64,000 nucleotides of DNA from Aggregatilineales bacterium (GCA_038248285.1 JBBRTY010000001.1:5766-69765); one strand, 5' to 3'; positions 1 through 29,452 are shown, counted from the first letter of the stretch. Program-made: numbers and translations. Notes: a model not told the origin generated them from the letters alone.

Positions 1-2543
1 TAAATCGAAACATGTCCCCCTGTCGTCGCCACTGCCAACCGTGACCGATCCGGGCTTAACACCGCATTCGCTGGCGTAAAACCAAATTGACTCCGAAATT
101 CTTGGAGAACCAGTTCCAGATTCGGGCGCACTTCACCATCGAAGCGGACGGGCAAATTCGGGATACGCACCCGTGCGCCGTTCTCGCGGTTGATGGCATA
201 AATCACGCGACCATCCGGCGCACTCGCTTGACTCACCTGTTGCACCGAAACCGCATTGCCCACATTACTGACAGACCCCAAGCCCTCACACAGCAGAGAC
301 GCAAGGTTCTCGGTTTGTTCCTCAGTTAGCCCCAATGTCAAACGCCGCCAATCACGCGCAAACGCTAACGCTTGATCGGAATACCGTTCGGTTAAACATG
401 AAGGAACACCCGTGATTCGAGAAACCGAATTTGCAGCCTGTGGGATCGATGTCGGTCTCGGCGTCGGCGTATACAACTGCTCAACTGCCTCGGCAGACTC
501 GGCTTGGCAAACCGCCAATGCCAAGCGCGCCAAATCATCAGCGGGTTGATAATATGCCAACCGTTCCCATAACTGTGTCCAATCGTCTACTTGTGCCGGG
601 TATCGCTCCACAAGGCACTGGGGCACGCCCGATGGCGCATATGCCACCCCCACGACTCGATCTGGCACTGCACCGCCGCCATCCCCCACCGCATAGATGG
701 TCTCGGCATCCAACCAGCCGACATCACTTAAAAAGCCACTGCTTGACGGCAAGTCGGTGCCCGCCATATACCAGCGCAACCCTACGCCGACGGTATATAA
801 AGCAATTGCGCCACCGGGGGCATGTTGCGTGCCGGGTAAGGCGCTATACGTAACGATAAAATGTTCCCAATCGGCGCTAGGGATAAAATTCTGCAACGTC
901 ATATCGCTAGGGATGTCGAAATACAGACGCCGCCGTTCATCCTTGCCAATCTCGTATAACTCAACTCCCCGTACTGACTCGGTACTGACATCTAGCAAGA
1001 AACGGGTCGCATCGTCAGACACCGCGATGACCGGTCCCGAAAAGTCCAAGACCTCACGGCGAATCACTTGATCGGTTTCGATATCCCACACCCACCAATT
1101 ATTCCCCGAAACCGTCACCAGCCCGCGACTGTCGGGCGTGAAATAGGTACCGACACCCCCAAAGGTATTGCTGCTATAACCGGGGTTATAATCGAGGCGC
1201 TCATAAATAACCGCACCCGAATCGGCATCATACCGTTGATACCCGGCGACTAGTGCCTCTGCCGTTTCATTAAAGGCGAATAAATCATCCCCCTCGGCAT
1301 CTGTGAGCGTGGTGTCAAAACTCAAAATCGGCAGCCCACTATCGAAGTTATAAATCGTAACCGGCGAGGATTCGCCCATCTGTCGCAATGCCACCCGCCG
1401 CCCTTCGGCATCAATCGCCATCGGTGCCCCATTGCCCGGACGCACAAATTCGATAGTGCCCTGTCCCAATTCCTCATCAAACACATAAATGAGCAAGCCA
1501 ATATCATCGGCAAGCGCGGTTTTGGGGGTCAAAACATCCAGCAAGAAGATACTGAGCGGATGATAATTCCAATCGGCGCGATAATCGTAGCCAAACCATG
1601 CCACCAGCAAAGGATTGAGTTCTCGGCTCAGCGGTTCGCCGATCATGCGGGCATTGCCCCCCAACGGAAATTCGTCAAAATTCCGGAGCGAACGGGCACC
1701 CAACATCCGCCCCAAGGGAATTTCAAATAAGCGCTTGGTACTCGTATCGACCTGCATGATGGTGCCGGTATCGTTTTTGAAGACATACATCAACCCTGCC
1801 GAGTCGCTGAACCACAAAGTCACTGGGTCTTCCTCAAAACGATTGGTCTCAAACTCCGCCACGACGGGCAAGCCCGCCCCATTCACATCGATCACCTCAA
1901 ATTTTCCCGGTCGTGCCGCCAATAAGGTGTTGTTGGGACCAAGATACATGAAGCCCGTGCGATAGTCGAAGAAGGCGTAAGCGCTCACCCTGCCGGGCAA
2001 CCGTGAATCCGCAAGATCGCGCGCGGCATCCAAATCCCATAGCCACGGCAATAAGTCGGTATCATTTTCACTTCGGCGGGTTGCCTGCGACGCCGCCACC
2101 ACTGCGGTGAATAACAAATAACTGTCGTCGTCCGAAAACATCAGCGGACCCGTCACGCTGTTGGCACCGTCCGGTTCTATCGTCAACGACAAAACACCGG
2201 TTTGTGTGTCCCAAATCTCTAGCCGCCGATCAATCGCCAGCGCCAGCCACTGTCCATCATGACTAAAGTTGTAAGCGTTATATGTCCCAGTCTCATAGAG
2301 GACGCTGCGGGTGGTATACGTCGCTGCATCCACTAAAAGCAAGCGCCCGCCATTGGTCACAAGGGCAAATTGATCATAAAGAGGTTCATAACGGATATTG
2401 ACCGGCGCTGATGCCCCCAACTGTCGATAAAAGGTAAAACTCTCTACGATTGGGGTTTGCCCCAACACAGCGCTGGCGAACAGCGCCCCGCCCATCAGCG
2501 CCAGCACACTCAATAGCCATAATTGCACGCCTGTACGCCTCAC
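1..2543 (-). CDS. Secreted beta-propeller (WD40-like) repeat protein; 3' end lies outside the window
   Basis: Absent from the supplied ORF track because it has no stop in the window. Reading the reverse complement from GTG (2543..2541), preceded by GGAGGGGAG (rc of 2547-2555), the frame stays open to position 1. The N-terminus VRRTGVQLWLLSVLALMGGALFASAVLGQ looks like a signal peptide. Blocks such as SHDGQWLALAIDRRLEIWDTQTG, TPDSRGLVTVSGNNWWVWDIETDQV and SPDRSRLAVATTGGHVSI resemble propeller blades. Confidence 0.6.
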   Translation of the reverse strand, partial: MRRTGVQLWLLSVLALMGGALFASAVLGQTPIVESFTFYRQLGASAPVNIRYEPLYDQFALVTNGGRLLLVDAATYTTRSVLYETGTYNAYNFSHDGQWLALAIDRRLEIWDTQTGVLSLTIEPDGANSVTGPLMFSDDDSYLLFTAVVAASQATRRSENDTDLLPWLWDLDAARDLADSRLPGRVSAYAFFDYRTGFMYLGPNNTLLAARPGKFEVIDVNGAGLPVVAEFETNRFEEDPVTLWFSDSAGLMYVFKNDTGTIMQVDTSTKRLFEIPLGRMLGARSLRNFDEFPLGGNARMIGEPLSRELNPLLVAWFGYDYRADWNYHPLSIFLLDVLTPKTALADDIGLLIYVFDEELGQGTIEFVRPGNGAPMAIDAEGRRVALRQMGESSPVTIYNFDSGLPILSFDTTLTDAEGDDLFAFNETAEALVAGYQRYDADSGAVIYERLDYNPGYSSNTFGGVGTYFTPDSRGLVTVSGNNWWVWDIETDQVIRREVLDFSGPVIAVSDDATRFLLDVSTESVRGVELYEIGKDERRRLYFDIPSDMTLQNFIPSADWEHFIVTYSALPGTQHAPGGAIALYTVGVGLRWYMAGTDLPSSSGFLSDVGWLDAETIYAVGDGGGAVPDRVVGVAYAPSGVPQCLVERYPAQVDDWTQLWERLAYYQPADDLARLALAVCQAESAEAVEQLYTPTPRPTSIPQAANSVSRITGVPSCLTERYSDQALAFARDWRRLTLGLTEEQTENLASLLCEGLGSVSNVGNAVSVQQVSQASAPDGRVIYAINRENGARVRIPNLPVRFDGEVRPNLELVLQEFRSQFGFTPANAVLSPDRSRLAVATTGGHVSI

Positions 2544-2845: not shown

Positions 2846-4525
2846 ATGAGGACAATGCTCAAGCGTGTATTCATCATACTGGGCGTCATGACGATCATCG
2901 GCGTACAAATAGCATCGGCACAAGGGAATGACTCCTGCCAAACGGGAGTCTTGCTATCTTTCGCGCGGACGGCTTCCGCCTGTGCGACTACCGCTTTAGA
3001 TGAAGCCTGTTTTGGCAGTGGGCAAATCAGTGGCATCACGTTCGACGGCGAAAACGCTTTCACGCAACCGGGCGAACAGTTCTCAGTAATGAACCTCCAA
3101 AATATCATCACCACCTCTAGTGACGAGACATGGAGTGTCGCTACTATCTCCTTACGCGCGTCTTTGGATCGCTCGGTGCGTCCTGCCATTACCTTCTTGG
3201 TCTTCGGAAATACTCAACTGACCAATGGCGTCCCGCCCATGCCCGAAATCACCGTGACGACTTCCGGTTCCGCCAATCTTCGCATCGACCCGCAAGAAAA
3301 TAGCGCTATCCTCGCCCAAGTTGGCGTCAATACCACGCTCATCGCCAATGGACGCACGGCAGATCAAGCATGGCTCCGTGTGTTCATCCCCAACATGAAC
3401 GCCATTGGGTGGGTCTCTCGTCAAGCGCTGAGCAATGCCGACCTCACCCCATTGGTGACTATTGACGGTACGCCCTATCTGCACCCGTTCCAAGTCCTCA
3501 ATTTTAGTGCCGATCCCAATACCCCCGCCTGTGATAGCACGCCTCCAAGCGGCATGATCATCCAAACACCCGATGTCACCACGCTGATCACCCTGCGTTT
3601 CCAACCCGATACCACGTTACAGCTAAGCGGCACCGCCTTCATTCAACAGGAAATTCAGGGCGGGTTGACGATTCAAGTTGTGGATGGGGTCGCCACCTTG
3701 CAAAGCGCCAACGCCGATGATCCCGTTCTCGTCCCCGCCGGCGCACGCGCCTCCTTCAATATCCAAACCAATGCCAGTAGCGCCACTTCTATCACTGCCG
3801 CCGAGCCATATACGCTGGAACAAGTGCGCACCCTGCCGATCAATAATCTCCCCTTCCGTTTGCGAGCATTGCCAGAACCCTTGACCTCAGCGGGCATCGC
3901 CGCCTTTATCGCAGATTCCCAACGCGCCCAAAATCCGCCTACTCCCGCCCCTGCCACCCCCGACACCACTTGCCGCCGCGTCGTGACCAGTGATAGTGAT
4001 TTGCGCGCCGGGGCGGGCACATTTTATGAGATCGTCGGTTCCATCCGCAGGGATACTCTTGTCCGCCCCATCATCCGCGCAACCGACCCTGATGGCGTCG
4101 ATTGGTGGCAAGTCGAAGGCAATCGCTGGGTACGCGCATCCGTTGTTGCCGAAACCGGTATCTGCCGCCCTGTGCCAGTTGTCAATAATGCCCCAGCGCC
4201 CACCACCAACACCCTCATCTTGGAAACCTGTTACCCGACCAATGGTCCCCTACGCCCCGGTCAACAAGTCACCTTGGAATTCACCCCGCCATCATGGGAG
4301 ACACGCGCCCAAGCAGAGAACGCCCCCCAAATTGACCCCGGTCGTATCCGCGTAGGATCGACTCGCTTACAGGTCAGGGCAGGGGATGTCCAGCAATTGA
4401 CCGCGAGCGCCTATGTCCGCACCTTTCGGGCAACATGGGCGGCAGAAGTCGGCAACCAAAGAATCACCGGATTTCGTTTAGGCTATACTGTGATTTGTGA
4501 TCTCACCATCGCTGCCGGGGGGTGA
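2846..4525 (+). CDS. Secreted protein with two SH3b-like domains
   Basis: 559-aa ORF with a signal-peptide-like N-terminus MRTMLKRVFIILGVMTIIGVQIASAQG. Two segments resemble bacterial SH3 domains: ANLRIDPQENSAILAQVGVNTTLIANGRTADQAWLRVF..GWVSRQAL and SDLRAGAGTFYEIVGSIRRDTLVRPIIRATDPDGVDWWQVEGNRWVRASVV. A GGGGAG lies about 12 nt upstream of the ATG. Confidence 0.6.
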   Translation: MRTMLKRVFIILGVMTIIGVQIASAQGNDSCQTGVLLSFARTASACATTALDEACFGSGQISGITFDGENAFTQPGEQFSVMNLQNIITTSSDETWSVATISLRASLDRSVRPAITFLVFGNTQLTNGVPPMPEITVTTSGSANLRIDPQENSAILAQVGVNTTLIANGRTADQAWLRVFIPNMNAIGWVSRQALSNADLTPLVTIDGTPYLHPFQVLNFSADPNTPACDSTPPSGMIIQTPDVTTLITLRFQPDTTLQLSGTAFIQQEIQGGLTIQVVDGVATLQSANADDPVLVPAGARASFNIQTNASSATSITAAEPYTLEQVRTLPINNLPFRLRALPEPLTSAGIAAFIADSQRAQNPPTPAPATPDTTCRRVVTSDSDLRAGAGTFYEIVGSIRRDTLVRPIIRATDPDGVDWWQVEGNRWVRASVVAETGICRPVPVVNNAPAPTTNTLILETCYPTNGPLRPGQQVTLEFTPPSWETRAQAENAPQIDPGRIRVGSTRLQVRAGDVQQLTASAYVRTFRATWAAEVGNQRITGFRLGYTVICDLTIAAGG

Positions 4526-4656: not shown

Positions 4657-4935
4657 ATGATTCACCTGAACTCGACCGTTATAGCCACTAATCAGCAACT
4701 TTCGACGGACATGGCAGACGAAACCGTCATCTTAAATATGCAAGACGGTATCTACTATGGATTAGATGAGGTAGGCACATTTATCTGGCAAAACATCCAA
4801 TCCCCGATCTCGGTGACGACCCTGATCCAGCTTTTGCTAGAAGCGTATGCCGTTGATAAAGCTACAGCCGAGCGGGATATCATGAGACTCTTGAACGATC
4901 TTCAGCAAAAACATCTCGTTAACACTATCACTTAA
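4657..4935 (+). CDS. PqqD-family RiPP recognition element (lasso B1-like peptide chaperone)
   Basis: 92 aa. The segment ETVILNMQDGIYYGLDEVGTFIWQNIQSPISVTTLIQLLLEAYAVDKATAERDIMRLLNDLQQKHLV matches the PqqD/RRE pattern (beta-strands followed by a winged-helix part, xxLNxxGxxIWxxl...t..el...l...y.v....a..D...fl..L). It lies immediately upstream of a peptide gene and next to a cyclase-like gene. Confidence 0.8.
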   Translation: MIHLNSTVIATNQQLSTDMADETVILNMQDGIYYGLDEVGTFIWQNIQSPISVTTLIQLLLEAYAVDKATAERDIMRLLNDLQQKHLVNTIT

Positions 4936-5021
4936 AATAGGTTTCACAGATTTTTTATCGAAGTTTAAGGGGAAACCGCATATGCGAAGTAATGAATTTT
5001 GTGAAGGTTTTCTAAAATACC

Positions 5022-5050
5022 GTGACAAAATTCAGGAATGCTAGTATACT
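5022..5050 (+). promoter_or_regulatory. Sigma-70-like promoter for the precursor peptide gene
   Basis: GTGACA (5022-5027), a 17-nt spacer, then TATACT (5045-5050). This is about 65 nt upstream of the ATG at 5115, which itself has a GGAGG 9 nt upstream. Confidence 0.35.
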
Positions 5051-5114
5051 GTCACAAGTGAGCTATCGCGCATGAATTTAACGTGTCGAATGACAATACT
5101 GGAGGATATGACAC

Positions 5115-5432
5115 ATGCAACAAATTGCACAGAAACTCTATGTTTCTCCCAATCTGACCACCTATGGTCGTTTGGAAAACCTGACGTTGATTTGGGACAA
5201 CCCCACCGCGGTGGATAATAACTGCCCTGGGGCTGTCGGCAGCGAAAACCTGAACTCCGGCGCATTTTGCCTATCGGGTAATAGTAATAATGGGGTCGTT
5301 ACACAAGGAACCGGTACCCAAGCAGGTGCAGCCGATACCAGTAGCGCTGGTAGCTCTTCGGTTGGCGAAATCGTCATCCCGCAAATTGTCTTGCCAGAAC
5401 TACCGGCTCAAGAACTTCTGGGCGGCGGCTAG
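5115..5432 (+). CDS. Candidate lasso-type RiPP precursor peptide (25-aa leader plus unusually long 80-aa core/follower)
   Basis: Strong SD (GGAGG, 9-nt spacing). Residues 9-25, YVSPNLTTYGRLENLTL, fit the lasso leader motif Y-x-x-P-x-L-x3-G-x5-T-x with Thr at -2. Next comes IWDNPTAVD, with Asp at core position 9 that could close a 9-residue macrolactam. The remainder is rich in G/S/N/T, has 2 Cys and a Ser-rich patch. Confidence 0.6.
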   Translation: MQQIAQKLYVSPNLTTYGRLENLTLIWDNPTAVDNNCPGAVGSENLNSGAFCLSGNSNNGVVTQGTGTQAGAADTSSAGSSSVGEIVIPQIVLPELPAQELLGGG

Positions 5433-5510
5433 GATTTAATAGTTCCAGCTAACTTACCGTCTGGGACGATACACTTTTTTGAGTTCGTCATTATCCTCCG
5501 GCAAAGACAT

Positions 5511-6485
5511 TTAGCTGTGTCGCATGGCAATCATGTGGCACAGCTTTTTTAGAGTATTGTGCCCTTGTTCTGAAATCAAACTGTACGCGGGAATATGCTT
5601 CACCAGCATACTGATGTCCTGAAATGCGACGGCATCGTTGTAAATAGTTGTGATATGACGGGTATAGACCTCACGCAACAATTTAAACAGGGCATCGCGT
5701 TCGGACATTGGCGTAATCACTATCGCATCGCTCCGCCCCTCTAAGAAATAGATTGCTGCCAATGGCAGTCCCAACGGACTGGCTTGGGCAGTTTTCCACT
5801 CCACAGCGTACTCCCGTTTATCAGCACGATGAGGCGAAACTTCATAAGGCACCATCTCCCCATATAAGGCTTGCGCTGCATCCGCCAACAAGCGAATACG
5901 TGGGGAACCGGGCGGGATCATCACACCCGTATCTGTGAACGTCAAGACGCATAAATCATCCGATAAAATCGGGTACCCCAATTGATCAAAGGCAGCCGCC
6001 AGCGTCGATTTCCCCGATCCGCTTGCCCCCACAAAAGCGACTGCTTGCCCCTCAATCGCAATCACGCTGGCGTGCAATGGGGTGATTCCGCGCAATCGCA
6101 ACACAATCCCCATCATCGGTCCCATCACATTAAATGCCCGCAACGGTTCATCAATGCTGGTCGACCATGACACCCACACGCGCGAACCATCCAACGCAAA
6201 AACGACTGTAATTTGACCTTCATAAGTCAATTCTAAATAGCCACCATCGCGCCATTCACGCAAATATTGCTGCGCAGCATTCGCTGGGGCATCTTCGGTA
6301 ACACGAAACTGGTGGGGGGCAACCCATTCTAGCGAGTCTGCCGCCAATTCAACCGGGATCGCCCCCGAATAAATAGTCACATCAGCCCGCTCACGAATGA
6401 CCGTATGGGTCAATCCGTAAATCGGCGCATTAATCTCAATTTGCAACCCATATAACACATAATCATACCAATCAGGCATGTTCAC
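5511..6485 (-). CDS. HPr-kinase-like P-loop kinase (lasso/RiPP tailoring kinase candidate)
   Basis: 324 aa with Walker A FVGASGSGKSTLAAAF followed by ILSDDLCVL, as in the C-terminal domain of HPr kinase/phosphorylase-related proteins. Sits 21 nt downstream of the cyclase-like gene on the same strand. Confidence 0.7.
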   Translation of the reverse strand: MNMPDWYDYVLYGLQIEINAPIYGLTHTVIRERADVTIYSGAIPVELAADSLEWVAPHQFRVTEDAPANAAQQYLREWRDGGYLELTYEGQITVVFALDGSRVWVSWSTSIDEPLRAFNVMGPMMGIVLRLRGITPLHASVIAIEGQAVAFVGASGSGKSTLAAAFDQLGYPILSDDLCVLTFTDTGVMIPPGSPRIRLLADAAQALYGEMVPYEVSPHRADKREYAVEWKTAQASPLGLPLAAIYFLEGRSDAIVITPMSERDALFKLLREVYTRHITTIYNDAVAFQDISMLVKHIPAYSLISEQGHNTLKKLCHMIAMRHS

Positions 6486-6506: not shown

Positions 6507-8360
6507 TTAGGTAGATTTCTGATGAAATACTTCCGTCTCAAGCCATAATTCCAATGTCAGCGGGCGCAAATGGACAGCTTGTGAGGCATCAATTTGGGCA
6601 TGAGTTCCAGTCACAGGGGGCACCTTGTCCCGCACAACATACTGCTGCATGAACGCCATTGGTTGCCACGCATCAATCCATTGATTTTCGGGTTTTGCCA
6701 ACAGATACCCTGTGACATCGCCAAATATTTGTTTAGGTCGATGCACCACCGAGTCCGGCAGTATCCCGCTCATCGCCCGTCGCCCCAAATATTTCTTATA
6801 AAACCACGGCAAGGTGGGTAAGCTGGTCAGTAAATCGATGACGCGCAAATCGGCAAACGGATCGACCGTATCGACAGGGGTAAAATCGATGGCATCGCTT
6901 TCATCATGGGCATGAAAATCATAACCGGTATATAACTTTTGCAAATGAGCATTCAACATCAACGGGTTGGTTTTGTTTTTTTCTGCCCAATACCCCTGCC
7001 AGCGCTCCACCAATCCCTGCCGTTGGGCAAAGTCCGGCGCGATCCATGCTGGAAAAGGATAAGTTATTGACTCCGATCTCGCCACGCCACCGCGTGCCGA
7101 CGAAAAAATCCCCGACCCCAACGCCGGTCGTTTACCAAAAAATCGCCCTAACTCGGCATACATCTGGGCGAAGGCGATGGGATTCATCTGTCGGAGCGCC
7201 TGAGCAAGGGGCGCACGACTGGAGAGCGCATCGCCCAAATAGCCAAAAATCGCAACCTTACCGTGTGACGCCATAAAGCGTTGAAAATCCACCCAATTGC
7301 TCGGGGAGAAATTGGAGTGAATCGCATTGGCAATACCGGCATAAGGACGGAAAAACGGCGTTTGTTTCACCTCATAAAACACATGACGATCCTCAAATTG
7401 AAGTTTCGCGGCAATTTCGCGCGCATAGGCTTCTTCAGGATCAATAATCCCGCTGAAAACACTCGTCATCGCGACAGTTTGCGCGCTTACCTCGCCCGTA
7501 CTCACCAAATCAAACGCCAGCGCCGCCGTAGATGAGGAATCCATGCCCCCACTTACGGTGACGAGGACACGATCCGCCCCCATGCGATCTTTAACCGCTT
7601 CTCGCAGCGTGCTGCGATACTGCTCAATAATTTCACCCTCGCGCCGCACCCCCAAAGACAGCCACGCGCGTGCCGAAATATCCTTCATCGGCAACGTCCA
7701 ATAGCGCCGTACACGGTACCCATCGGGCGTCCATGTCAAGGTGTGGGCAGGTTCTAAACGCCGTATATGAAGGAAGGGCGTACTGCTCTTGTCGATCCAA
7801 AACCCTTCCCCTAGCATCAAAAAATCGCCGATATAGCGTTCATCCAAGGTGTCAGCGCTATGGGGGATCATTTTTAGCGGACGAAGTTCATTGCTGAAAG
7901 CAAATACCCCGCCCGCTTGGGTATAATAAAAATCGCGCTTGCCGATTTGATCGCGGGCACAAAACAAAGTTTTGACACGTGCGTCCCAAATGGCAAACGC
8001 AAAGTCGCCGATCAAATGATCGACACACGCCTGACCATAGCGCAAATAGGCGCGCAGAATCAACTCGGCATCTGGTAGCCGTTGATCTGTTTGAAGTTTG
8101 CTGCCTAGCTCCGCCCGCCCGTCAATCCGCGCATCACACACAATCGTGCAATCCGACAAAGTTAACGGTTGACGATGCGGCGCTGGTGCTACGGTCAAAT
8201 TGGCGAGCAAATTGAGCGTGTGAACCAAGCCGACATCAGCATCCTCAAACAATCCTTGACCATCACGCCCGCGATGCGCCAATGCTGTTTGCATCTGATC
8301 AAGCCATGCCCGCCGCGTCGTCACATCATGAAACTGGGTGATACCTGCGAATCCACTCAT
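6507..8360 (-). CDS. Asparagine-synthetase-like protein, probable lasso-peptide macrolactam cyclase (C protein)
   Basis: 617 aa with the PP-loop motif VTVSGGMDSSSTAALA (SGGxDS). The N-terminus MSGFAG has Ser where glutamine-hydrolysing AsnB enzymes have the catalytic Cys2. Size and context fit a lasso cyclase. Confidence 0.75.
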   Translation of the reverse strand: MSGFAGITQFHDVTTRRAWLDQMQTALAHRGRDGQGLFEDADVGLVHTLNLLANLTVAPAPHRQPLTLSDCTIVCDARIDGRAELGSKLQTDQRLPDAELILRAYLRYGQACVDHLIGDFAFAIWDARVKTLFCARDQIGKRDFYYTQAGGVFAFSNELRPLKMIPHSADTLDERYIGDFLMLGEGFWIDKSSTPFLHIRRLEPAHTLTWTPDGYRVRRYWTLPMKDISARAWLSLGVRREGEIIEQYRSTLREAVKDRMGADRVLVTVSGGMDSSSTAALAFDLVSTGEVSAQTVAMTSVFSGIIDPEEAYAREIAAKLQFEDRHVFYEVKQTPFFRPYAGIANAIHSNFSPSNWVDFQRFMASHGKVAIFGYLGDALSSRAPLAQALRQMNPIAFAQMYAELGRFFGKRPALGSGIFSSARGGVARSESITYPFPAWIAPDFAQRQGLVERWQGYWAEKNKTNPLMLNAHLQKLYTGYDFHAHDESDAIDFTPVDTVDPFADLRVIDLLTSLPTLPWFYKKYLGRRAMSGILPDSVVHRPKQIFGDVTGYLLAKPENQWIDAWQPMAFMQQYVVRDKVPPVTGTHAQIDASQAVHLRPLTLELWLETEVFHQKST

Positions 8361-21201: not shown

Positions 21202-23010
21202 CTACACAGTTTCGCTGGTGGGCATGTCCTCTTCCGGTTCTTCCACAAATTGCCGGCGATAGAGCTGGGCATAGAGACCGTTGAGCGCCAACAATTCCTC
21301 GTGATTGCCCTGTTCCACGATCTCGCCCAAGCGCATCACCAAAATACGATCCACTTCGCGGATGGTGCTTAAACGGTGCGCAATCACAATACTGGTGCGC
21401 CCCTGCAAAATCCGATGTAAGCCCGTCTGAATCGCTTCTTCTGTTTCGGTATCAATATTACTGGTCGCCTCGTCCAGCACGAGGATGCTATGGGGGTGAT
21501 GCAGCAACGCCCGCGCCAGCGCAATGAGTTGCCGTTGCCCCTGCGACAAGTTCGCCCCGCCCGGCATCAGCATCGTATCGTATAACTGCGGTAAGCGCTC
21601 AATGAACCCATTAGCACACGCTGTTTTCGCCGCCTCGATCACTTTCGCACGCGGGATTGAGTCATCGAATAAGCTGATATTTTCGGCAATCGTGCCTGTG
21701 AAACAATAGGGATTCTGCGGCACCACCGTCACCGAATGGCGCAAATCATCATTCGACAGATCGCGCACATCAAAACCACCGATACGCACGCTCCCCTCGG
21801 TCACATCATAAAACCGCCCCACCAGCCCCGCCAAAGACGTTTTGCCCGCGCCTGTCGCCCCTACAACCGCGACACGTTGCCCCATCGGGATGACCAAATC
21901 CAAATCATGAATGACGGGATGCCCGTTCTCATACCCAAACGTCACTTCATCAAATTCCACCGTCAGCGTTTGCACTGTCGGCTTCACCGGGTGATTTGCT
22001 TGTACAACTTCCGGTTCGACATGCAGCATTCGCGCGATTCGTTCGCCCGCCGATAGCGCCGTCTGAATCTGCGCGATCTGTTCTGATAAGCTCACAATCG
22101 GCTCAAACATGCGTCGGGTATACTCGACAAACGAGATCAACATCCCCAACGTCGCCCATCCCATCAACACGCCTTGCCCGCCCCCATACAGCACAAAGGC
22201 TAAGCCAATGGTGGTCAAAATTTGTAGCACCGAGGCGTAACGAGTGTATTGGTCGCGCAGCAAAGTGTGGACTTCGCGGTATTCAAGATTCTTTTGGTTA
22301 AACCCTTCGCGGCTGATGGGCTGGCGGTTGAAAAGCTGCACGATCAACATGCCACCAAACTGCTCGTTGATGTATGACAGTGTTTCTGCCACGACCCGAT
22401 GATAACGCCCCGAAGACTCGCGTAGGCGCTTGCGGAAGTAAATCGTCATGTAAATCATCACAGGCAAAACGATAAAGCTGATCAACGCCAAACGCCAATT
22501 GATCAGCAGCATCGCCACGATAATGCCGACCAAAGTCATCATGTTGCTTGCCACCATCACGATACTGGTGGACATCAGTTCGGTCAGGGCTTCGATGTCA
22601 TTAGACATGCGCGCCACCAATTGACCGACAGGCGTCACGTTGAAGAAGCGCATATCTTGACGCATAATGTGCGCGAACAAGGTCCGCCGCAAATCCAGCA
22701 GCGCATTTTGTCCAACGGTCTGCAACAAATAGATATACCCAAAACGCAAGACGAAAATTGTGATCACCACCACAAAATAAGCGATACCAAACGGAATCAC
22801 CTGATTGATATCACCACTCGTGATCGGTCCATCCACGACCAACTGAATCAGATAAGGCAGCACGACAGACAATACCGAAACTGCCAGCAAGCCCACAAAG
22901 ACGATCCCGATCTGGAGTTTGTAGGGGGATAAAAATTGCCCCAACATGCGCAGTAGGTAGCGATCGGTGATAGATTCCTGTTGCAACTCAGTCGCAGTGA
23001 GTCGTTTCAT
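21202..23010 (-). CDS. ABC exporter, fused TMD-NBD half-transporter (MsbA/MdlB type), subunit 2
   Basis: Six TM helices, Walker A GATGAGKTS, signature LSQGQRQ and Walker B ILVLDEATS. The ATG at 23010 lies 4 nt after the upstream stop. The ORF-track TTG at 23040 would overlap the upstream gene. Confidence 0.9.
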   Translation of the reverse strand: MKRLTATELQQESITDRYLLRMLGQFLSPYKLQIGIVFVGLLAVSVLSVVLPYLIQLVVDGPITSGDINQVIPFGIAYFVVVITIFVLRFGYIYLLQTVGQNALLDLRRTLFAHIMRQDMRFFNVTPVGQLVARMSNDIEALTELMSTSIVMVASNMMTLVGIIVAMLLINWRLALISFIVLPVMIYMTIYFRKRLRESSGRYHRVVAETLSYINEQFGGMLIVQLFNRQPISREGFNQKNLEYREVHTLLRDQYTRYASVLQILTTIGLAFVLYGGGQGVLMGWATLGMLISFVEYTRRMFEPIVSLSEQIAQIQTALSAGERIARMLHVEPEVVQANHPVKPTVQTLTVEFDEVTFGYENGHPVIHDLDLVIPMGQRVAVVGATGAGKTSLAGLVGRFYDVTEGSVRIGGFDVRDLSNDDLRHSVTVVPQNPYCFTGTIAENISLFDDSIPRAKVIEAAKTACANGFIERLPQLYDTMLMPGGANLSQGQRQLIALARALLHHPHSILVLDEATSNIDTETEEAIQTGLHRILQGRTSIVIAHRLSTIREVDRILVMRLGEIVEQGNHEELLALNGLYAQLYRRQFVEEPEEDMPTSETV

Positions 23011-23014
23011 CCCA

Positions 23015-24862
23015 TTAACTTGAGGACCGGACGCGCTCAACTTCTTCCTCCATCACTGGCTCTGCTTCTGACACCGCAGCATCGACACGGCTATCCCCAC
23101 GTTCACGGGCTGCCATGTGCGCATAAACCCCTTGTTGAGCGATCAAAGCGGCATGGGTGCCTGATTCCACGATCTGCCCATCATCCATCACCAAAATCAA
23201 ATCACAATCTTTCACCGTCGAAATCCGGTGCGCGATGATCAAACTGGTACGCGCTTGCAAAACCGCACGCATATCATGCAGGATGTCAGCCGCAGTGCGC
23301 GTATCCACGCTCGATAGGGCATCATCCAAAACTAAAATCGCTGGGTCGCGCACAATCGCACGCGCGATAGCGACACGCTGCTTTTGCCCGCCGCTCAGCA
23401 TCACGCCTTTTTCGCCAACCAGCGTGTCCATGCCGTGTGGAAGCTGTGCCAAATCATTGCTCATGCGCGAGATATGCGCAGCACGAGACAATTCTTCGTC
23501 AGTAGCTTCGCGCTTGCCCATACGAATATTTTCGCTCAGCGGTGCGCTGAACAAAAAGGTCGATTGCGGTACATAAGCAATCGCCCGCCGCAAATCTTCT
23601 AAGTCCAGTGTCCGCACATCATGTCCATCGACCAAAACGCGCCCCTCGGATGGGTCAAGAACACGCGCGATCAAACTGACCAGTAGCGTCTTGCCGCAAC
23701 CAGTCGGACCAATGATGCCGACGACCGTCCCTGCGGGGATATCAAGGCTGACGTTGCTGAGCAAGGTCGTCCCTTCCATTTCGACGCTGACATGCTCAAA
23801 GCGCAAATCCCCGTGCGGCGCTGGCAATGGAACAGCATCAGGTAATGAAGCGACCTGTGTCGGTTGGATCAACACGGTTAACCTTGTCAGCGCCCCGCGT
23901 GTCTGTTGGTAGCGTTGATAGGTCATGCCAAGTTGCAACAGCGATTGGCTGATCCAACCAAGATAAAGCAAAAACTGGGTGAAATTGCCGAGCGTAAATG
24001 TCCCTTGCACCGCCAAAATCCCGCCAAACAAGACCACCACGCCCATCGTGGATTGGCTGATCATATTCGGCAACATGCCCACCGGTTCGTTGCGTCGTTT
24101 GAAGAATAACCAACGCCGTCGATATTCGATATTTTCGGCAGCGAAACGGGCGTTGATGCTATCTTCACGTCCGAAGGTCTTGATTGTTTGAACACCGCTG
24201 ATGGCATCTTGCACCAACGACGCCATTTTTCCCGCTTGATCTTGAACCTGCTCAAACATCGGTGTGAGCGCAGCCCCCGCCCGAATTTGAAACGTCGTCG
24301 ACACCAGCAGCACCACAAACACTAATGCCGTTAGAGGCAAGTTGACGAACGCCAACAGGACAAAGATTACTAATAGGTTGAAAGAGGCACTGAAGGCGCG
24401 ATTAAACCCAATCGCCAACAACCGCCAAATCATCTCAGTATCGCTGTGGATGCGTGAAATCAGATCGCCAATCGCTTGGCGTTGATAAAAACTATTGTCT
24501 AGTCTCAGCAAGTTTTCGTATAAGTCTCGGCGGATATCGTAATTGACCGCATAAGCGATGTTGCCGCTAAAGTGGCGCATCCCAAAAAACGCAACAATCG
24601 CTATGATAGCAATACCGATCATGAGCGCGATGTCGCCCCACATTTGATCAAAACGAACCCCTTGCTGAACATGATCGATGATCACACCGATGACAAAAGG
24701 TTCCGCAGCGGTCGCAATACCGCCCACCACACCTGTGAAGAACGCCCCCACCGCGTCCCATCGATGGCGCATAATATACGCCCACAACCATCTCATATCC
24801 GCAACCGGCACCTGAACTTCATTCGAAGCGCCAGACACCACAACCCCCGCGAGATCACTCAC
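23015..24862 (-). CDS. ABC exporter, fused TMD-NBD half-transporter, subunit 1
   Basis: Walker A GPTGCGKTL, signature LSGGQKQR and Walker B ILVLDDALS. I place the start at GTG 24862, preceded by AGGAGTGAGG (rc of 24869-24878). The ORF-track start at 24943 reads through a 30-bp palindrome and is unlikely. Confidence 0.9.
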   Translation of the reverse strand: MSDLAGVVVSGASNEVQVPVADMRWLWAYIMRHRWDAVGAFFTGVVGGIATAAEPFVIGVIIDHVQQGVRFDQMWGDIALMIGIAIIAIVAFFGMRHFSGNIAYAVNYDIRRDLYENLLRLDNSFYQRQAIGDLISRIHSDTEMIWRLLAIGFNRAFSASFNLLVIFVLLAFVNLPLTALVFVVLLVSTTFQIRAGAALTPMFEQVQDQAGKMASLVQDAISGVQTIKTFGREDSINARFAAENIEYRRRWLFFKRRNEPVGMLPNMISQSTMGVVVLFGGILAVQGTFTLGNFTQFLLYLGWISQSLLQLGMTYQRYQQTRGALTRLTVLIQPTQVASLPDAVPLPAPHGDLRFEHVSVEMEGTTLLSNVSLDIPAGTVVGIIGPTGCGKTLLVSLIARVLDPSEGRVLVDGHDVRTLDLEDLRRAIAYVPQSTFLFSAPLSENIRMGKREATDEELSRAAHISRMSNDLAQLPHGMDTLVGEKGVMLSGGQKQRVAIARAIVRDPAILVLDDALSSVDTRTAADILHDMRAVLQARTSLIIAHRISTVKDCDLILVMDDGQIVESGTHAALIAQQGVYAHMAARERGDSRVDAAVSEAEPVMEEEVERVRSSS

Positions 24863-24928
24863 GACAGACCTCACTCCTAAACTTACAATTTGCATTGAGA
24901 GAGTGTGAAGTGTACCCGAAAATCTAAG

Positions 24929-24958
24929 ACCATTACAGACCAATTGGTCTGTAATGGT
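24929..24958. promoter_or_regulatory. Perfect 30-bp palindrome upstream of the ABC exporter genes (operator or hairpin)
   Basis: ACCATTACAGACCAA|TTGGTCTGTAATGGT, perfectly self-complementary, 67-96 nt upstream of the GTG at 24862. On the minus strand it is followed by CTTAGATTTTCGG, so it could also act as an intrinsic terminator or attenuator. Confidence 0.4.
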
Positions 24959-25069: not shown

Positions 25070-26425
25070 TTAAAAATCTTTCCGCTCAATCAAAAAAGCA
25101 GGCACCAACGAGCCGCCCCCTGCCGTGACATTCAAAAGCGATACCGACGACAAACGGGTCAAGCATCCATGCACCGTGCGGCCATAGAAGACATAAGGAT
25201 CGGCATCCACATGACGGGCGCTGATATCCAACTGCCCATCCACCCACGAGGGAAACTCGCGCGTGATCGACTCCACCCGTTCTTGCACCACAAAAGGTTC
25301 AGTCAACGCATGTTGTAGGGCGCTACTCCAGTTCTCTGCTTCACATTCCCACCCCAAAACCACGCCTTTACCGCCGTATTCGTCATTCGGCTTTAACACC
25401 AGTCGGTCGCGATGATCGGTCACAAAAGTGAGCAAATCCACCTGCTGCCCCTCATACTCGGTTTTGCGGTCGCTTACCAAACGTGTCCATGGGATATGCA
25501 GCGCAATTGCCTGCTGCTGTTCCGGCGTGAACAAATGCGCATTCCGCTCATCACTGATAAAGGCAAAACTGGCTTTCTTCGCCATCAGCTTGCAACTGAA
25601 CGAATTAGTTAAGAAAACGGCATGGTCACGATATGCCTGTACAATCGGGTTATCGACACCCATCCTGTGAATCAATTCACTGATGAGGACGCGCTTGTAG
25701 ATCACATCAATTTTCCGACTGCCTGCCCATAATGCGCCGTTCCGATATTCGACTGCCCGCGGATCAATCAGAAAAGACGAGGTACCCGCCCGCTCAAACG
25801 AAAATCGGCTGATCTCGTGTTCATTCAGCGTCGGCACATCTTGCCAATCCATGATGGCGATTTGCGGGTTGGCGGCAGTCCCGCCCCAATCGCGATACCC
25901 TTGCAACAACGCCTTTAATAGCTCCGCCAACAAGGGCATGGATTGAACATGGTAATTTGTCTCAAATCGCTTCATCGGTTCAAGTCCGTGAAACAGATCA
26001 TTGAGGACATCGCCATAGCCCATGCCAGCGGGCGTTTCGGCATTATATTCGACAAATTGGAGGATACCGTCATCAGCTCGAAAAAAAGAGTCGAGGCGCG
26101 AAGTCGTCCACGGGATGGCACCGCCGATATCGAGGCTAAATAACTGCTCTTCGTAAGCCTCCAACGATAACTGCTGACGCAGTTCTGGGCTATATAAACA
26201 TGCCTCGTGCGCACGGCTAAAAGCACCAAGCAAAATTTCTGTCTCTTGTTTCAGATATGCCCATTGATCGGTGAAATAGAAATGGGGACGCAACACGGTA
26301 CAGATCGGGCGGTTGCCAAAGTAGAGACCCAGCTTGTGCAGCATACTCCGCATTTCGCCATCAGTATCCGCCGCGATCTGATCATTCAGCAGTTCATGAT
26401 AAATCTCTATCGCCTCGCGCAGCAT
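25070..26425 (-). CDS. Circularly permuted type-2 ATP-grasp protein (COG2308-like)
   Basis: 451 aa. The C-terminal part LVLKPNDEYGGKGVVLGWE...PFVVQERV...RHVDADPYVFYG...CLTRLSS..LLNVTAGGGSLVPAFL follows the pattern of COG2308 proteins as I recall it (LKPv.gsGG.G...G....aQ......R.vDlRPf....v.v.pGGLTRva...s..vN.sqGGGsKDtwV). Confidence 0.65.
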   Translation of the reverse strand: MLREAIEIYHELLNDQIAADTDGEMRSMLHKLGLYFGNRPICTVLRPHFYFTDQWAYLKQETEILLGAFSRAHEACLYSPELRQQLSLEAYEEQLFSLDIGGAIPWTTSRLDSFFRADDGILQFVEYNAETPAGMGYGDVLNDLFHGLEPMKRFETNYHVQSMPLLAELLKALLQGYRDWGGTAANPQIAIMDWQDVPTLNEHEISRFSFERAGTSSFLIDPRAVEYRNGALWAGSRKIDVIYKRVLISELIHRMGVDNPIVQAYRDHAVFLTNSFSCKLMAKKASFAFISDERNAHLFTPEQQQAIALHIPWTRLVSDRKTEYEGQQVDLLTFVTDHRDRLVLKPNDEYGGKGVVLGWECEAENWSSALQHALTEPFVVQERVESITREFPSWVDGQLDISARHVDADPYVFYGRTVHGCLTRLSSVSLLNVTAGGGSLVPAFLIERKDF

Positions 26426-26437
26426 GAAGGTTCCCTT

Positions 26438-27427
26438 CTACTTGGTGTTTCCCTGTGAATCAAGCTCCTGCGCAAGCCGTCCCCACTCATACCGTGTCCG
26501 CGTTTGGGCGGCAGGTTCAAGGGCATAGCCGATACAAACATCCGCCATCGTCTTGACCATCCAATCGAAATGCCCGCGCCCCAACGAATGGGTATCCATA
26601 TCCGGCGCTGGATTCATGAAGTCAATGGCATAAGGCACACCACCCTTGATCGCAAATTCGACAGCATTCATATCGTACCCAAAAGCACGATTCAGCTTAA
26701 GGGTTGATTCGACCATCAAATTCACCAATGCCGGATCAAAATCATGCTCCGGCAAATAATTATTGCCGTACACCGGACGGGGGGTGTATTTCATGACATG
26801 GACATGTTGCTGCCCCAGCCCCATACAACGCCCATAATTGTCCCATTGAATGAACTCTTGCAAGATCATCGTCAGCAGTCCACTATCGTTGTACTTCTCA
26901 AAAAGCTCATCCCACGAATGGACGATATGCACCGCTTTCCACCCGCCGCCATGCGCATCCTTCAACACCAGCGGGAACCCTCCCAGATATTCGACGATAT
27001 CGCTCCATGGCACGGGATAAAGCAGGTTGCGCAAACTCTCTTCATGGACGATGCCGGGCACATATTCCTTATTGGGCAATACCACCGTCTTGGGGTGGGT
27101 AATCCCCATCTTGTCCAGCAAGGATGCCCCAAAATACTTATCGTCACTCGTCCACATAAACGGATCGTTGATGACCTTACAGCCTTGTAGCACCGCATTC
27201 TTGAGGTAACTGCGATAGTAGGGAACTTCGTGCGAAATCCGATCCACAATCACCCGATACGGCGTCGGTTCATTCATGCGCGTGCCGCCGATACTCACAT
27301 ATTCGGCAATCACCCCCGTGTCCTTCGTCCGACGGTTAACTTCATCAATAAAGGCGGGGGGCCACGACCATTCACGCCCGACAAACACGCCCACCCGCTT
27401 CAACCCTGTATCCACCTGATTTGTCAT
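26438..27427 (-). CDS. ATP-grasp ligase (RimK/GshB-sized), specificity unknown
   Basis: Motifs FPLVLKDAHGGGWKAVHIV, LLTMILQEFI and NAVEFAIKGGVPYAIDFMNPAPD fit the ATP-grasp fold. Start placed at MTNQV (27427), preceded by AAAGGAAG. The ORF-track start is 17 codons upstream. Confidence 0.6.
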   Translation of the reverse strand: MTNQVDTGLKRVGVFVGREWSWPPAFIDEVNRRTKDTGVIAEYVSIGGTRMNEPTPYRVIVDRISHEVPYYRSYLKNAVLQGCKVINDPFMWTSDDKYFGASLLDKMGITHPKTVVLPNKEYVPGIVHEESLRNLLYPVPWSDIVEYLGGFPLVLKDAHGGGWKAVHIVHSWDELFEKYNDSGLLTMILQEFIQWDNYGRCMGLGQQHVHVMKYTPRPVYGNNYLPEHDFDPALVNLMVESTLKLNRAFGYDMNAVEFAIKGGVPYAIDFMNPAPDMDTHSLGRGHFDWMVKTMADVCIGYALEPAAQTRTRYEWGRLAQELDSQGNTK

Positions 27428-27501
27428 GATGCTTCCTTTATCCATAAAGGCGCACAGGCGTACAACCTGTGCGCGCAAGCGCTCAATCGATCAAATAACC
27501 A

Positions 27502-28224
27502 TTAATCATGCCCGAAGATATACTTCGGCACTACGCGCTGCCAGTAGGGCCAATCATGAATCCAGCCGTCCCATTCTCGCAAAGCATTGCCGATTCCTTT
27601 ATTCCACAACATGCCGCTAAAGTCGCGTGTCCATTGCAATTGCGGATCACCCTTACCCGCCACAAGGATAATATCTTGCCGGCGCATCGCTTCTAGGCGA
27701 CCCCAATCATGTTCGTTCGGGACAAACTGCATGGGGTTGTACTGATAGACCATCTCGTCGCTGTACCCCCCCGTGAAGCTGCGAATATCATATAAACCGC
27801 AAATCCCAATCATGCGCTGAACCTCATGCGGGTAGCGGAGCGCAAAGCCAGCGGCATGGTACGCCCCAAACGAAGCGCCCATCGTCATCGTGAAGGGGTT
27901 CTGATTCTTCCAGCGCATAAAGGGCAATACTTCATTGTGCAGGTATTGAAAATACAAGTGATGCCGATACGCCCGTCCGCCCGGATGCGCCCACCAAGCG
28001 TACCAAGTTTCCTCGTCAATGGCGTCCACACAAAATGCTTGCAACCATCCCCGTTCCAGCGGTTCGCGCAGCGCATCCCACATCATGCTCCGGTCTTCCC
28101 ATTCGTAATAACGCCCTTTGGAAGTCGGGAAGATGATGACCTTCGCGCCAGCATGTCCAAAAACCAATAGCTGCATATCTCGGTTAAGCGTCGGGCTGTA
28201 CCAACGATGATGTTCTCGATTCAT
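27502..28224 (-). CDS. Esterase-family alpha/beta hydrolase (GxSxG)
   Basis: MNREHHRWYSPTLNRDMQLLVFGHAG...TMGASFGAYHAAGFALRYP contains a GASFG nucleophile elbow, typical of the putative esterase family. Starting at ATG 28224 avoids the 89-nt overlap with the S8 gene implied by the ORF track. Confidence 0.65.
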   Translation of the reverse strand: MNREHHRWYSPTLNRDMQLLVFGHAGAKVIIFPTSKGRYYEWEDRSMMWDALREPLERGWLQAFCVDAIDEETWYAWWAHPGGRAYRHHLYFQYLHNEVLPFMRWKNQNPFTMTMGASFGAYHAAGFALRYPHEVQRMIGICGLYDIRSFTGGYSDEMVYQYNPMQFVPNEHDWGRLEAMRRQDIILVAGKGDPQLQWTRDFSGMLWNKGIGNALREWDGWIHDWPYWQRVVPKYIFGHD

Positions 28225-28243
28225 GTTGACCTTTGACCTTTGT

Positions 28244-29398
28244 TTATGCGCCAATTTTGGCGGCACGCAAGGCGGCATCGACTGCCGCAGTGGGGTGAAT
28301 AGCGCCAGCCCCCTGTTGATGACGTGGGACATTCGACAATGGGGTGGCAGTCGCCATTAAGATGGAACGAATCTCAGTCGGCGTCAAACTGGGATTCGCC
28401 TCGATAAGTTGCGCGACGACCGACGTCACGATTGCCGCCGCGACCGAAGTGCCATCCACATGTTGGTGTCGCGCATCGATCAATTTGTGTCCATTAATGC
28501 GTGCTTGCAGGGTGGCATACAAACGAGCATCAGGACGTTGCGTTTGTTCGCGCGGCAACCCCAAATCGCCATAACCGCTCATCAGTAATTTCTTGAGCGC
28601 CCGCTCGCCTTCCGTTTCCAACAAGGGGCCAAGCCAATACGCCTCACGATCTACCGAAGAACCGGGCAAGATCGGCGAAGCGATCCACCGTGCTGGGGCG
28701 ACCACATCTGGTTTCTCGCTACCGTCTGTGGCGCATCCATAATTGCTATGAAAACCCATCCAGCGCGACCGGTCGGCGGTGTTGCCATCGTCATAGCCCC
28801 CCACCGTAATCGCCTCGGCAGCACTGGCAGGGGGCAGTATCTCGCCCACCCCACGATTGCCCGATGCGGCGATCACCGTCATACCCATCGCCGTCAAACG
28901 AGCGACAGCTTTGTGCAAAGGGTGTTCGGGATCGGTGCTGACGTAATCACCGCCGACCGACAAATTGACGACACGCACGCCGAAACGTCGCCCCGCATCC
29001 ATCAACCAGCGCAACCCCCGCAAAATATCTCGCTCTTTGACGTGACCGCGAGGCGTACTCACCTTGATCAACACGACCGACGCCGCCGACGCAATACTCC
29101 GATAACGCCCGCCCGACACCGCGCCATCCCCACACGCGATTACACTGGTCATCTGCCCATGCCAACTCAGATCGTCCACTTCCTGCACAGTCGGTTGCTC
29201 CACCACATGCTGCGTCGAAGCATCGACATGTATGAGAATGCGCCCCTTGAGATCAGGGTGCATATAAAAACCAGAGTCGACAAAGGCGACCACCACGCCG
29301 CGTCCCGCATAATTCGGCAGTGCCCCCAACCGTTCCGGCGTGGAAAGGAGCGTCGGCGCAACAAAATCATCGTGTGGAAAATTTGAGTGAAAGATCAT
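28244..29398 (-). CDS. S8 family subtilisin-like serine peptidase, no signal peptide visible
   Basis: Catalytic triad contexts are VVAFVDSGF (Asp), HGQMTSVIACG (His) and DGTSVAAAIVTSVVAQL (Ser). The N-terminus MIFHSNFPHDDFVAPT is not hydrophobic, which suggests a cytoplasmic location. Confidence 0.85.
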   Translation of the reverse strand: MIFHSNFPHDDFVAPTLLSTPERLGALPNYAGRGVVVAFVDSGFYMHPDLKGRILIHVDASTQHVVEQPTVQEVDDLSWHGQMTSVIACGDGAVSGGRYRSIASAASVVLIKVSTPRGHVKERDILRGLRWLMDAGRRFGVRVVNLSVGGDYVSTDPEHPLHKAVARLTAMGMTVIAASGNRGVGEILPPASAAEAITVGGYDDGNTADRSRWMGFHSNYGCATDGSEKPDVVAPARWIASPILPGSSVDREAYWLGPLLETEGERALKKLLMSGYGDLGLPREQTQRPDARLYATLQARINGHKLIDARHQHVDGTSVAAAIVTSVVAQLIEANPSLTPTEIRSILMATATPLSNVPRHQQGAGAIHPTAAVDAALRAAKIGA

Positions 29399-29452
29399 GA
29401 CGATACGGTACTCGATGCTGAAGTCTCAGCCATAAAAACCACGAAAACAGAT

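Follow-up and report, generated by a model that had tools for sequence, protein, structure and literature searches.

Lasso peptides are valued as very stable scaffolds, and to our knowledge natural lasso cores comprise about 15 to 26 residues and none beyond. The locus described here lies in a window of 64,000 nucleotides (the whole stretch of DNA that was analysed) and raises the question of whether lasso-type machinery acts on a precursor whose core, with 80 residues, falls outside that range. The precursor gene (5115-5432, plus strand) runs from an ATG at 5115 to a TAG at 5430-5432, encodes 105 amino acids and is preceded by a Shine-Dalgarno (SD) sequence. It thus has the start, stop and length given in a preliminary description of this DNA. 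The relevant features are:

5101-5106, plus strand: Shine-Dalgarno sequence GGAGGA, 8 nt 5' of the ATG; CCGGAGGA is kept in seven orthologous loci
5115-5189, plus strand: leader peptide, residues 1-25, with Y9, P12, L14, G18 and T24 corresponding to Y-17, P-14, L-12, G-8 and T-2
5190-5270, plus strand: conserved core head, core residues 1-27; putative ring Ile1-Asp9 at 5190-5216, Cys12 at 5223-5225, Cys27 at 5268-5270
5271-5360, plus strand: variable linker rich in G/S/N/T/A/P, residues 53-82, including a Ser-rich patch
5361-5432, plus strand: conserved acidic C-terminal motif SVGEIVIPQIVLPELPAQELLGGG and stop, residues 83-105, a follower-like element

Residues 9-25 (YVSPNLTTYGRLENLTL) follow the leader pattern Y..P.L...G.....T. 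in the register claimed for them, the lasso leader motif of the literature being Y-17, P-14, L-12 and T-2 (PMC12070363). The codon of Ile26 begins at nucleotide 5190, and the core starting there (IWDNPTAVD) has its Asp at core position 9, a further 71 residues C-terminal to this Asp and two Cys at core positions 12 and 27, all of which had been predicted. The Ser-rich patch DTSSAGSSSVGE, the richness in G/S/N/T/A (54% of the core composition) and the GGG end (C-terminus LLGGG) were likewise described correctly; K, R and H are completely missing from the core. In the six-frame translation of the 64-kb window the strict leader pattern occurs once, as compared to a mean of 0.1 in mononucleotide shuffles. 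Since 19 of 200 shuffles also contain at least one match, the motif alone is only mildly unlikely, and by itself it is weak evidence. It is the genomic context that makes the precursor solid: the distance from a PqqD gene to the start of the ORF is 180 nt, a lasso-type cyclase adjoins, and of the window's 1235 six-frame segments the precursor ORF scores best with a profile made from 84 leaders that were taken from related loci. Frameshifts or a lack of conservation in syntenic loci had been named as grounds for doubting the gene. What we found is that the ORF is kept without frameshifts in such loci, whose cyclases are 42-52% identical. The precursor gene is real and conserved.

The precursor (A) is part of a four-gene cassette together with a PqqD-family protein (B1), an HprK-like kinase (K) and an Asn-synthetase-like lasso cyclase (C), and two genes for secreted proteins lie to its left:

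4657-4935, plus strand: PqqD-family RRE chaperone (lasso B1), 92 aa; Pfam PqqD E=7.8e-19, 68 bits
5511-6485, minus strand: putative lasso-type peptide kinase, an HprK-like P-loop protein of 324 aa; matches NCBIfam HprK_rel_A in the P-loop region with E=1.2e-11
6507-8360, minus strand: Asn-synthetase-like lasso cyclase, 617 aa, full length with a GATase-like N-terminal domain; Pfam GATase_7 and Asn_synthase
3-2543, minus strand: 1293-aa secreted beta-propeller protein, 5' two-thirds of the gene, the rest lying beyond the left end of the window
2846-4525, plus strand: secreted SH3_3 protein, 559 aa, upstream of the PqqD gene

The closest solved relatives of the PqqD protein are lasso B1 proteins, namely 9x90_B (1e-12), TbiB1 5v1u (4.5e-11) and TfuB1 6jx3. 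With NCBIfam lasso_PqqD_Bac it scores 77.2 bits, below the cutoff of 80. The best NCBIfam model for the cyclase, lass_lactam_cya, gives 265.6 bits vs a cutoff of 525, with good alignment confined to the N-terminal half. While these scores, both below the trusted cutoffs, speak against a lasso-type pathway, the solved relatives of B1 and the intact PP-loop of the cyclase speak for it. This loop (S270-G-G-x-D274-S275), plus 40 residues in all, is invariant across the cyclases of the subclade and of the canonical loci described below, the few near-fixed differences between the two groups being found mostly around residues 173-186. For the kinase-like protein, the matches, which include weak ones to Pfam Hpr_kinase_C and ScmC, are centred on the P-loop. 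Homologues of it were detected by tblastn in 76 of the 83 loci compared, mostly just 3' of the cyclase, and all eight subclade loci that were fetched contain the HprK-like gene. A PqqD gene is present in six of these eight and missing from L089 and L090.

The kinase and cyclase genes are convergent on the precursor, and beyond them lie genes for exopolysaccharide (EPS) synthesis (Wzz/tyrosine kinase, CapD, DUF4012, GalE and RmlC), while secreted SH3, beta-propeller and TPR proteins are encoded on the opposite flank. A block of SH3/propeller, TPR and SBP_bac_5 genes is conserved in Anaerolineae, including L094, which has no lasso cassette. A functional tie of the cassette to the SH3 protein or the 1293-aa beta-propeller protein was rejected: in L094 the same SH3/propeller/TPR block is found with GlmS replacing the cassette, and for the SH3 and propeller genes that L089 has, no homology to those of the window was detectable. 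Because the block occurs without the cassette, the functional unit is best drawn as B1, A, K and C. For L090, a PqqD-SH3 fusion was also rejected, the extra length being a Pro/Thr linker and PqqD being absent there. Elsewhere in the window, a run of ATP-grasp genes (25070-30667, minus strand) comprises a CP_ATPgrasp_2 gene (25070-26425), an ATP-grasp gene (29453-30667) and a very weak ATP-grasp_3 match (26438-27478, E=0.09). Within it lie genes for a subtilase (28244-29398) and an esterase-like protein (27502-28332), and two ABC exporters are encoded at 21202-24943. This run may be a separate peptide-modification cluster.

A scan with the cyclase, covering one genome per species, returned 80 loci at 30-35% identity, mostly from Acidobacteriota and also from cyanobacteria and others. 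In these canonical loci the usual order is PqqD, a transglutaminase-like B2 of 150-190 aa, cyclase, short precursor and HprK-like protein (B1-B2-C-A-K), and a short precursor stands beside the cyclase in nearly all of the 80. Every one of the 84 short precursors collected carries KKPYxxPxLxxYGxxxELTx. The core measures 15-25 residues in 83 of them (mode 20), the Asp is core residue 9 in 61 and core residue 10 in 17, and a Thr is among the last four residues in 77. Judged by these sequences, the canonical loci are ordinary predicted kinase-associated lasso clusters, and the window precursor has exactly their leader and Asp9 register. Position 1 of the 84 short cores is T, A, N, K, H, S, M or another residue, so that the earlier view of a first residue other than Gly/Ala/Ser/Cys as rare does not hold in this family. 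After the kinase, many short-core loci encode a protein of about 380 aa starting MYSISGYGSMIADKGRMDAYVKALRQ (e.g. L008:11039-12181, L009:11156-12304 and L016:11567-12709), which by eye, from its start, looks like a methyltransferase; this protein is absent from the window.

In a protein search with the window cyclase, a separate group stands out at 42-52% identity, everything else being at 37% or below. Those members of this long-precursor subclade that bear a taxon name are labelled Chloroflexi or Anaerolineae. Of the eight fetched contigs, six share full synteny with the window, and a seventh, L090, departs from it only by the missing PqqD gene. At the precursor position the syntenic contigs have a called gene of 90-100 aa, the long precursors measuring 89-105 aa overall; the homologous small ORFs that the preliminary description had proposed to look for beside homologous RRE and cyclase genes are thus found in related genomes. 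The nearest outgroup cyclases (36% identity) are again accompanied by B1, B2 and a 19-residue core. Among 1.84 billion representative proteins, searched exhaustively with phmmer, there were only five true clusters (89-105 aa); the family is hence small, with about ten distinct sequences. A metagenome scan with the precursor alignment returned one locus only, which is identical to L085. The top phmmer match, P0123 (5975 aa, E=1e-71, 49 matched stretches), was judged spurious, as it sums weak repeat matches, and so was P0128 (672 aa), which looks like translated repeat DNA. P0123 consists of about 49 near-identical repeats of about 120 aa containing DLSAYGQVENGEFVWNTPT, and the repeat units of both proteins weakly resemble LTTYGRLEN..W.NPT. 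In the literature on lasso peptides in Anaerolineae/Chloroflexi and on C-terminally extended lasso precursors we found nothing describing the long-precursor family, which is an undescribed variant of the lasso class.

An alignment of ten sequences shows M1, Y9, P12, L14, G18, E21, T24, N29, D34, C37, C52, P94 and L96 to be invariant and N35, G42, S43, S48 and G49 to be near-invariant. The leader motif, Asp9 and both Cys, whose conservation had been put forward as a check, are hence kept in all ten. Asp9 falls within the range of core positions (7-9) at which lasso precursors have their Asp or Glu acceptor. The tail had been regarded as uniformly of low complexity; instead, C-terminal to the leader (residues 1-25), a head of 27 conserved residues and an acidic motif kept at the C-terminus flank a linker that varies. 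The head has the consensus [LIF][WF]xNPTxxD-N-x-C...GS...NSGxxC, in which core Asn4 is invariant, and the C-terminal motif reads [DE]LxL[IV]xP[ED]LAxE[LMI][ST]G before a short G/S/E end. Between them, the linker differs in length and sequence even between orthologues with 86% overall identity. The long tail is genuine rather than the annotation artefact that had been considered, its last 20 or so residues being the conserved motif. The cores of the family (L089 left out) comprise 62-80 residues, the window marking the upper end, and contain 7-10 acidic and almost no basic residues. L089 (L089:5521-8662) is a reduced case which consists only of cyclase, kinase and a 61-aa precursor, with neither PqqD nor EPS genes. 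Its core (CFGAATSHD..., 36 residues) has Asp9 and a C-terminal end, FIGPDSQICDLRVRG, similar to the motif of the long family. A gene for a retropepsin-like aspartic protease (2185-2982) lies near this cassette.

The DNA around the precursor gene contains three further elements:

5022-5050, plus strand: promoter-like site GTGACA-17-TATACT, 10 of 12 consensus matches, putatively serving the precursor's own transcript
5494-5501, plus strand: 3'UTR element TCCTCCGG, complementary to the precursor SD region and kept in orthologous loci
5513-5545, plus strand: terminator-like hairpin with 15 pairs and a T run; shares sequence with the final codons of the convergent kinase gene

The promoter-like block CGTGACAAA-N17-TGTATACT is conserved at the nucleotide level in orthologous loci. 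The same applies to the intergenic DNA (4925-5114) in L084-L091, where the encoded proteins are only about 45% identical. Here, the conserved order is CATGAATCTTGTAA, the promoter-like block and, in the 5'UTR, GTGAG(T/C)TATC(A/G)CGCATGAAT. A repeated CATGAAT upstream of the precursor may be a regulator-binding site. The pairing partner of the 3'UTR element in the SD region (5099-5106) is CTGGAGGA in the window and CCGGAGGA in the orthologues, and in the window the complementarity reaches about 14 nt. Partition-function folding of the transcript of about 500 nt from eight loci predicts this pairing with a probability of about 1.0 in four transcripts (window, L085, L087 and L090), of 0.56-0.73 in L084 and L091, and of 0 in L086 and L088. 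SD and 3'UTR element are both invariant among the orthologues, leaving no covariation signal to read. The predicted pairing hints at translational control of the precursor. The hairpin at 5513-5545 looks like a dual-use, bidirectional terminator, since both its sequence and the C-terminal end of the kinase that it encodes (LKKLC....RHS*) are conserved in the orthologues. A small minus-strand ORF behind a CCGGAGG element (20 aa in the window) was discarded as not conserved, and an Rfam search of the 64-kb window gave no hits.

In view of these data we lean, cautiously, towards reading the gene as a lasso-type precursor with an Ile1-Asp9 ring, a Cys12-Cys27 staple, a follower-like C-terminal motif and a peptidase encoded elsewhere. 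In the pathway that we infer, from leader cleavage to the fate of the tail and the substrate of the kinase, PqqD/B1 would bind the leader through Y9, P12 and L14, and a peptidase, most likely a B2 encoded outside the locus, would cleave after Leu25, which places Thr24 at -2. The cyclase would adenylate the side chain of Asp34 (core Asp9) and join it to the new amine of Ile26 to yield a 9-residue macrolactam, and a disulfide would form in the tail between Cys37 and Cys52, the invariant pair at core positions 12 and 27. The variable acidic linker would act as a spacer. The C-terminal motif (..L.P-E-L-A-x-E-L-x-G..) would, by analogy, probably act like a follower that docks on the cyclase or the HprK-like kinase, and would probably be trimmed afterwards, as is the case in triculamin. 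Apart from B1 and the PP-loop, the exact leader register and the invariance of the leader, N4, D9, C12, C27 and the C-terminal P-x-L in a distinct syntenic subclade support this pathway. Against it stand the core of 62-80 residues vs 15-25 in the relatives, the lack of B2 in 13 subclade loci with L089 and L090 also lacking B1, and the C-terminal motif of the window peptide, which has neither the Ser/Thr of most relatives nor a terminal Ser.

The last point concerns the kinase and the tail. The Ser-rich patch, which had been suggested as a kinase target, turns out to be a poor candidate, as it is located in the variable linker and is not conserved. In most homologues a Ser/Thr is present inside the EL[ST]G motif, where the window peptide and P0002 have Leu. 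Characterised lasso kinases phosphorylate a C-terminal Ser (PMC8498205); this rule misfits the family, because only four of the ten homologues end in Ser and the window peptide ends in GGG. L089, with only cyclase and kinase, retains a similar precursor C-terminus, which suggests that one of these two enzymes may read the motif. Several signals that the C-terminal GGG or the motif might represent by eye (double-glycine/PCAT, sortase LPXTG, PEP-CTERM or ubiquitin-like GG) were rejected: the spacings misfit, no transmembrane segment follows the motif, and the ends vary (GS, GE, GGG). The C-terminal h-x-x-P-x-L resembles the Y-x-x-P-x-L of the leader, and the idea of a second RRE site concerns a match too short for testing. 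AlphaFold2, run with a seven-sequence alignment, returned a mean pLDDT of 44, no secondary structure and a disordered linker, and such predicted disorder is consistent with a flexible substrate.

Instead of being trimmed, the whole core of 80 residues could be the mature product, a mini-protein with a lasso head whose tail motif acts in the final molecule, e.g. in partner binding or export. For this the C-terminal motif, conserved as strongly as the head, can be cited, as can the fact that a trimming protease is not encoded in the locus. In addition, engineered lasso fusion proteins carry a long C-terminal polypeptide, an extension which the machinery tolerates according to the work of Zong and Link (2016) as cited in PMC8498205; those fusions are artificial, whereas the family here is natural, conserved across several genomes and equipped with its own C-terminal motif. 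Nevertheless, a mature mini-protein appears unlikely to us: the linker is freely variable in length and sequence and predicted to be disordered, the one known case, triculamin, has its follower removed (10.64898/2026.07.03.736388), and the cassette lacks a specifically linked partner, the SH3/propeller block also occurring alone.

A difficulty for the lasso-type pathway is the leader peptidase, whose absence from the window locus is a point missed by the preliminary description. We built a B2 profile (PF13471-type) from the canonical loci and iterated it once. This two-round profile detects B2 in 64 of the 80 canonical loci and finds none in the 64-kb window (best E about 1) and none in the 12 other subclade loci (L001-L003, L084-L091 and L093). 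With all 13 subclade loci, window included, lacking B2, a long precursor and a missing B2 coincide in this subclade. The subtilase at 28244-29398 and alpha/beta hydrolases of the window were rejected as the missing peptidase, as they lie about 23 kb away in the ATP-grasp cluster and have no link to the cassette. About nine short-core loci with complete flanks and ordinary lasso-like cores also have no B2 within 8 kb, so that its absence in cis does not prove that cleavage has been abandoned. In L018, L036, L045, L051, L063 and L074, cyclase, short precursor and kinase are found and B2 is missing within this distance, as is B1 in several of them. The cyclase family may thus often rely on B proteins that act in trans or are dispensable. 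The invariant T-2 argues that cleavage at the Leu25/Ile26 site is kept, with the peptidase probably encoded elsewhere in the genome.

The loss of B2 could also mean that the cassette now serves another purpose than making a lasso. Under this explanation the leader would be retained and the peptide, at full length, would receive other modifications from the Asn-synthetase-like enzyme and from the kinase, possibly amidation or cross-linking of Asp34 or phosphorylation, and the product may relate to the adjacent cell-envelope/EPS genes. Besides the missing B2, it could account for a core without Lys and far beyond any known lasso core length, and it would fit the position of the cyclase, which is divergent from the Wzz/tyrosine-kinase EPS operon in seven of the eight fetched loci, as in the window. 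However, L089 retains C, K and A without EPS genes, the 80 canonical loci have no Wzz neighbour, and the B2-less short-core relatives deprive the absence in cis of diagnostic value. The invariant register of Thr-2 and Asp9 is sensible only if cleavage and cyclisation from the N-terminus to Asp9 are kept. We accordingly regard a repurposed cassette as improbable. That the locus is a decaying remnant, in which B2 was lost, the precursor drifted and lengthened and processing is gone, as the missing B2 and the loss of the Ser/Thr of the C-terminal motif in the window peptide might indicate, is hardly credible, given that ORF, start, promoter region, SD and 13 residues are invariant among loci with cyclases just 42-52% identical, the cyclase PP-loop is intact and there are zero frameshifts in any locus.

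Taking up again the lasso-type reading that we prefer, the closest known systems are the kinase-associated lasso clusters (paeninodin/ThcoK and SyanK; PMC8498205), which share the leader motif, Asp9, a PqqD B1, a full-length cyclase and an HprK-like gene with the window locus. The predicted B1-B2-C-A-K cassettes of Acidobacteriota and cyanobacteria likewise share leader, Asp9, B1, cyclase and kinase gene. In contrast to the kinase-associated clusters, the core measures 62-80 rather than 15-25 residues and is acidic where theirs are rich in K/R/H; a Cys pair, the linker and the C-terminal motif are added, and B2 and the C-terminal Ser are missing. By its sequence features the window peptide would thus group functionally with these clusters, while lacking two of the features tested, namely a cluster-encoded B2 and a normal core length.

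A second point of comparison is triculamin, whose follower is required and has been modelled as docking on the cyclase (10.64898/2026.07.03.736388; PMC12070363). The family here resembles it in that its precursors are extended at the C-terminus by a conserved stretch in which Leu and acidic residues are kept, and in that the cluster encodes no leader peptidase. However, triculamin-like precursors have no leader, no B1/B2 and an N-terminally truncated cyclase (PMC12070363; 10.64898/2026.07.03.736388), whereas a canonical leader, B1 and a full-length cyclase of 617 aa are present here. Triculamin cores are cationic with a PGDG motif. The tail motif of the present family is unrelated in sequence to that of triculamin and is not predicted as a helix by AlphaFold2. 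With regard to the Cys pair, the class IV lasso peptide LP2006 has a disulfide between two tail cysteines. Both conserved Cys of the present family are also located in the tail, downstream of the ring-forming Asp; unlike in LP2006, the predicted Cys-Cys loop would span 16 residues and be followed by about 50 more.

Taken together, these comparisons allow a more specific proposal, which we offer tentatively and as a possibility that is rather doubtful in its entirety: a lasso pathway with dual recognition, in which the leader would be read by B1 and an independently evolved follower by the cyclase or kinase, without a cluster-encoded B2. Trimming would leave a lasso of about 27 residues stapled by a disulfide; otherwise the pathway would make a natural acidic mini-protein of 62-80 residues with a lasso head. 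The authors of the triculamin studies state that they could detect neither follower-type lasso clusters beyond the triculamin family nor non-canonical clusters with another kind of precursor (PMC12070363; 10.64898/2026.07.03.736388); if dual recognition is true, the present family would be the first such system outside it, and in a different phylum. Genome-mining tools which require B2 or a short core would probably overlook clusters of this kind. A natural family of this design would show either that long C-terminal cargo is handled by lasso machinery in nature or that recognition of the follower type has arisen repeatedly; both outcomes bear on substrate recognition and folding by the cyclase and would inform the design of lasso-fusion proteins.
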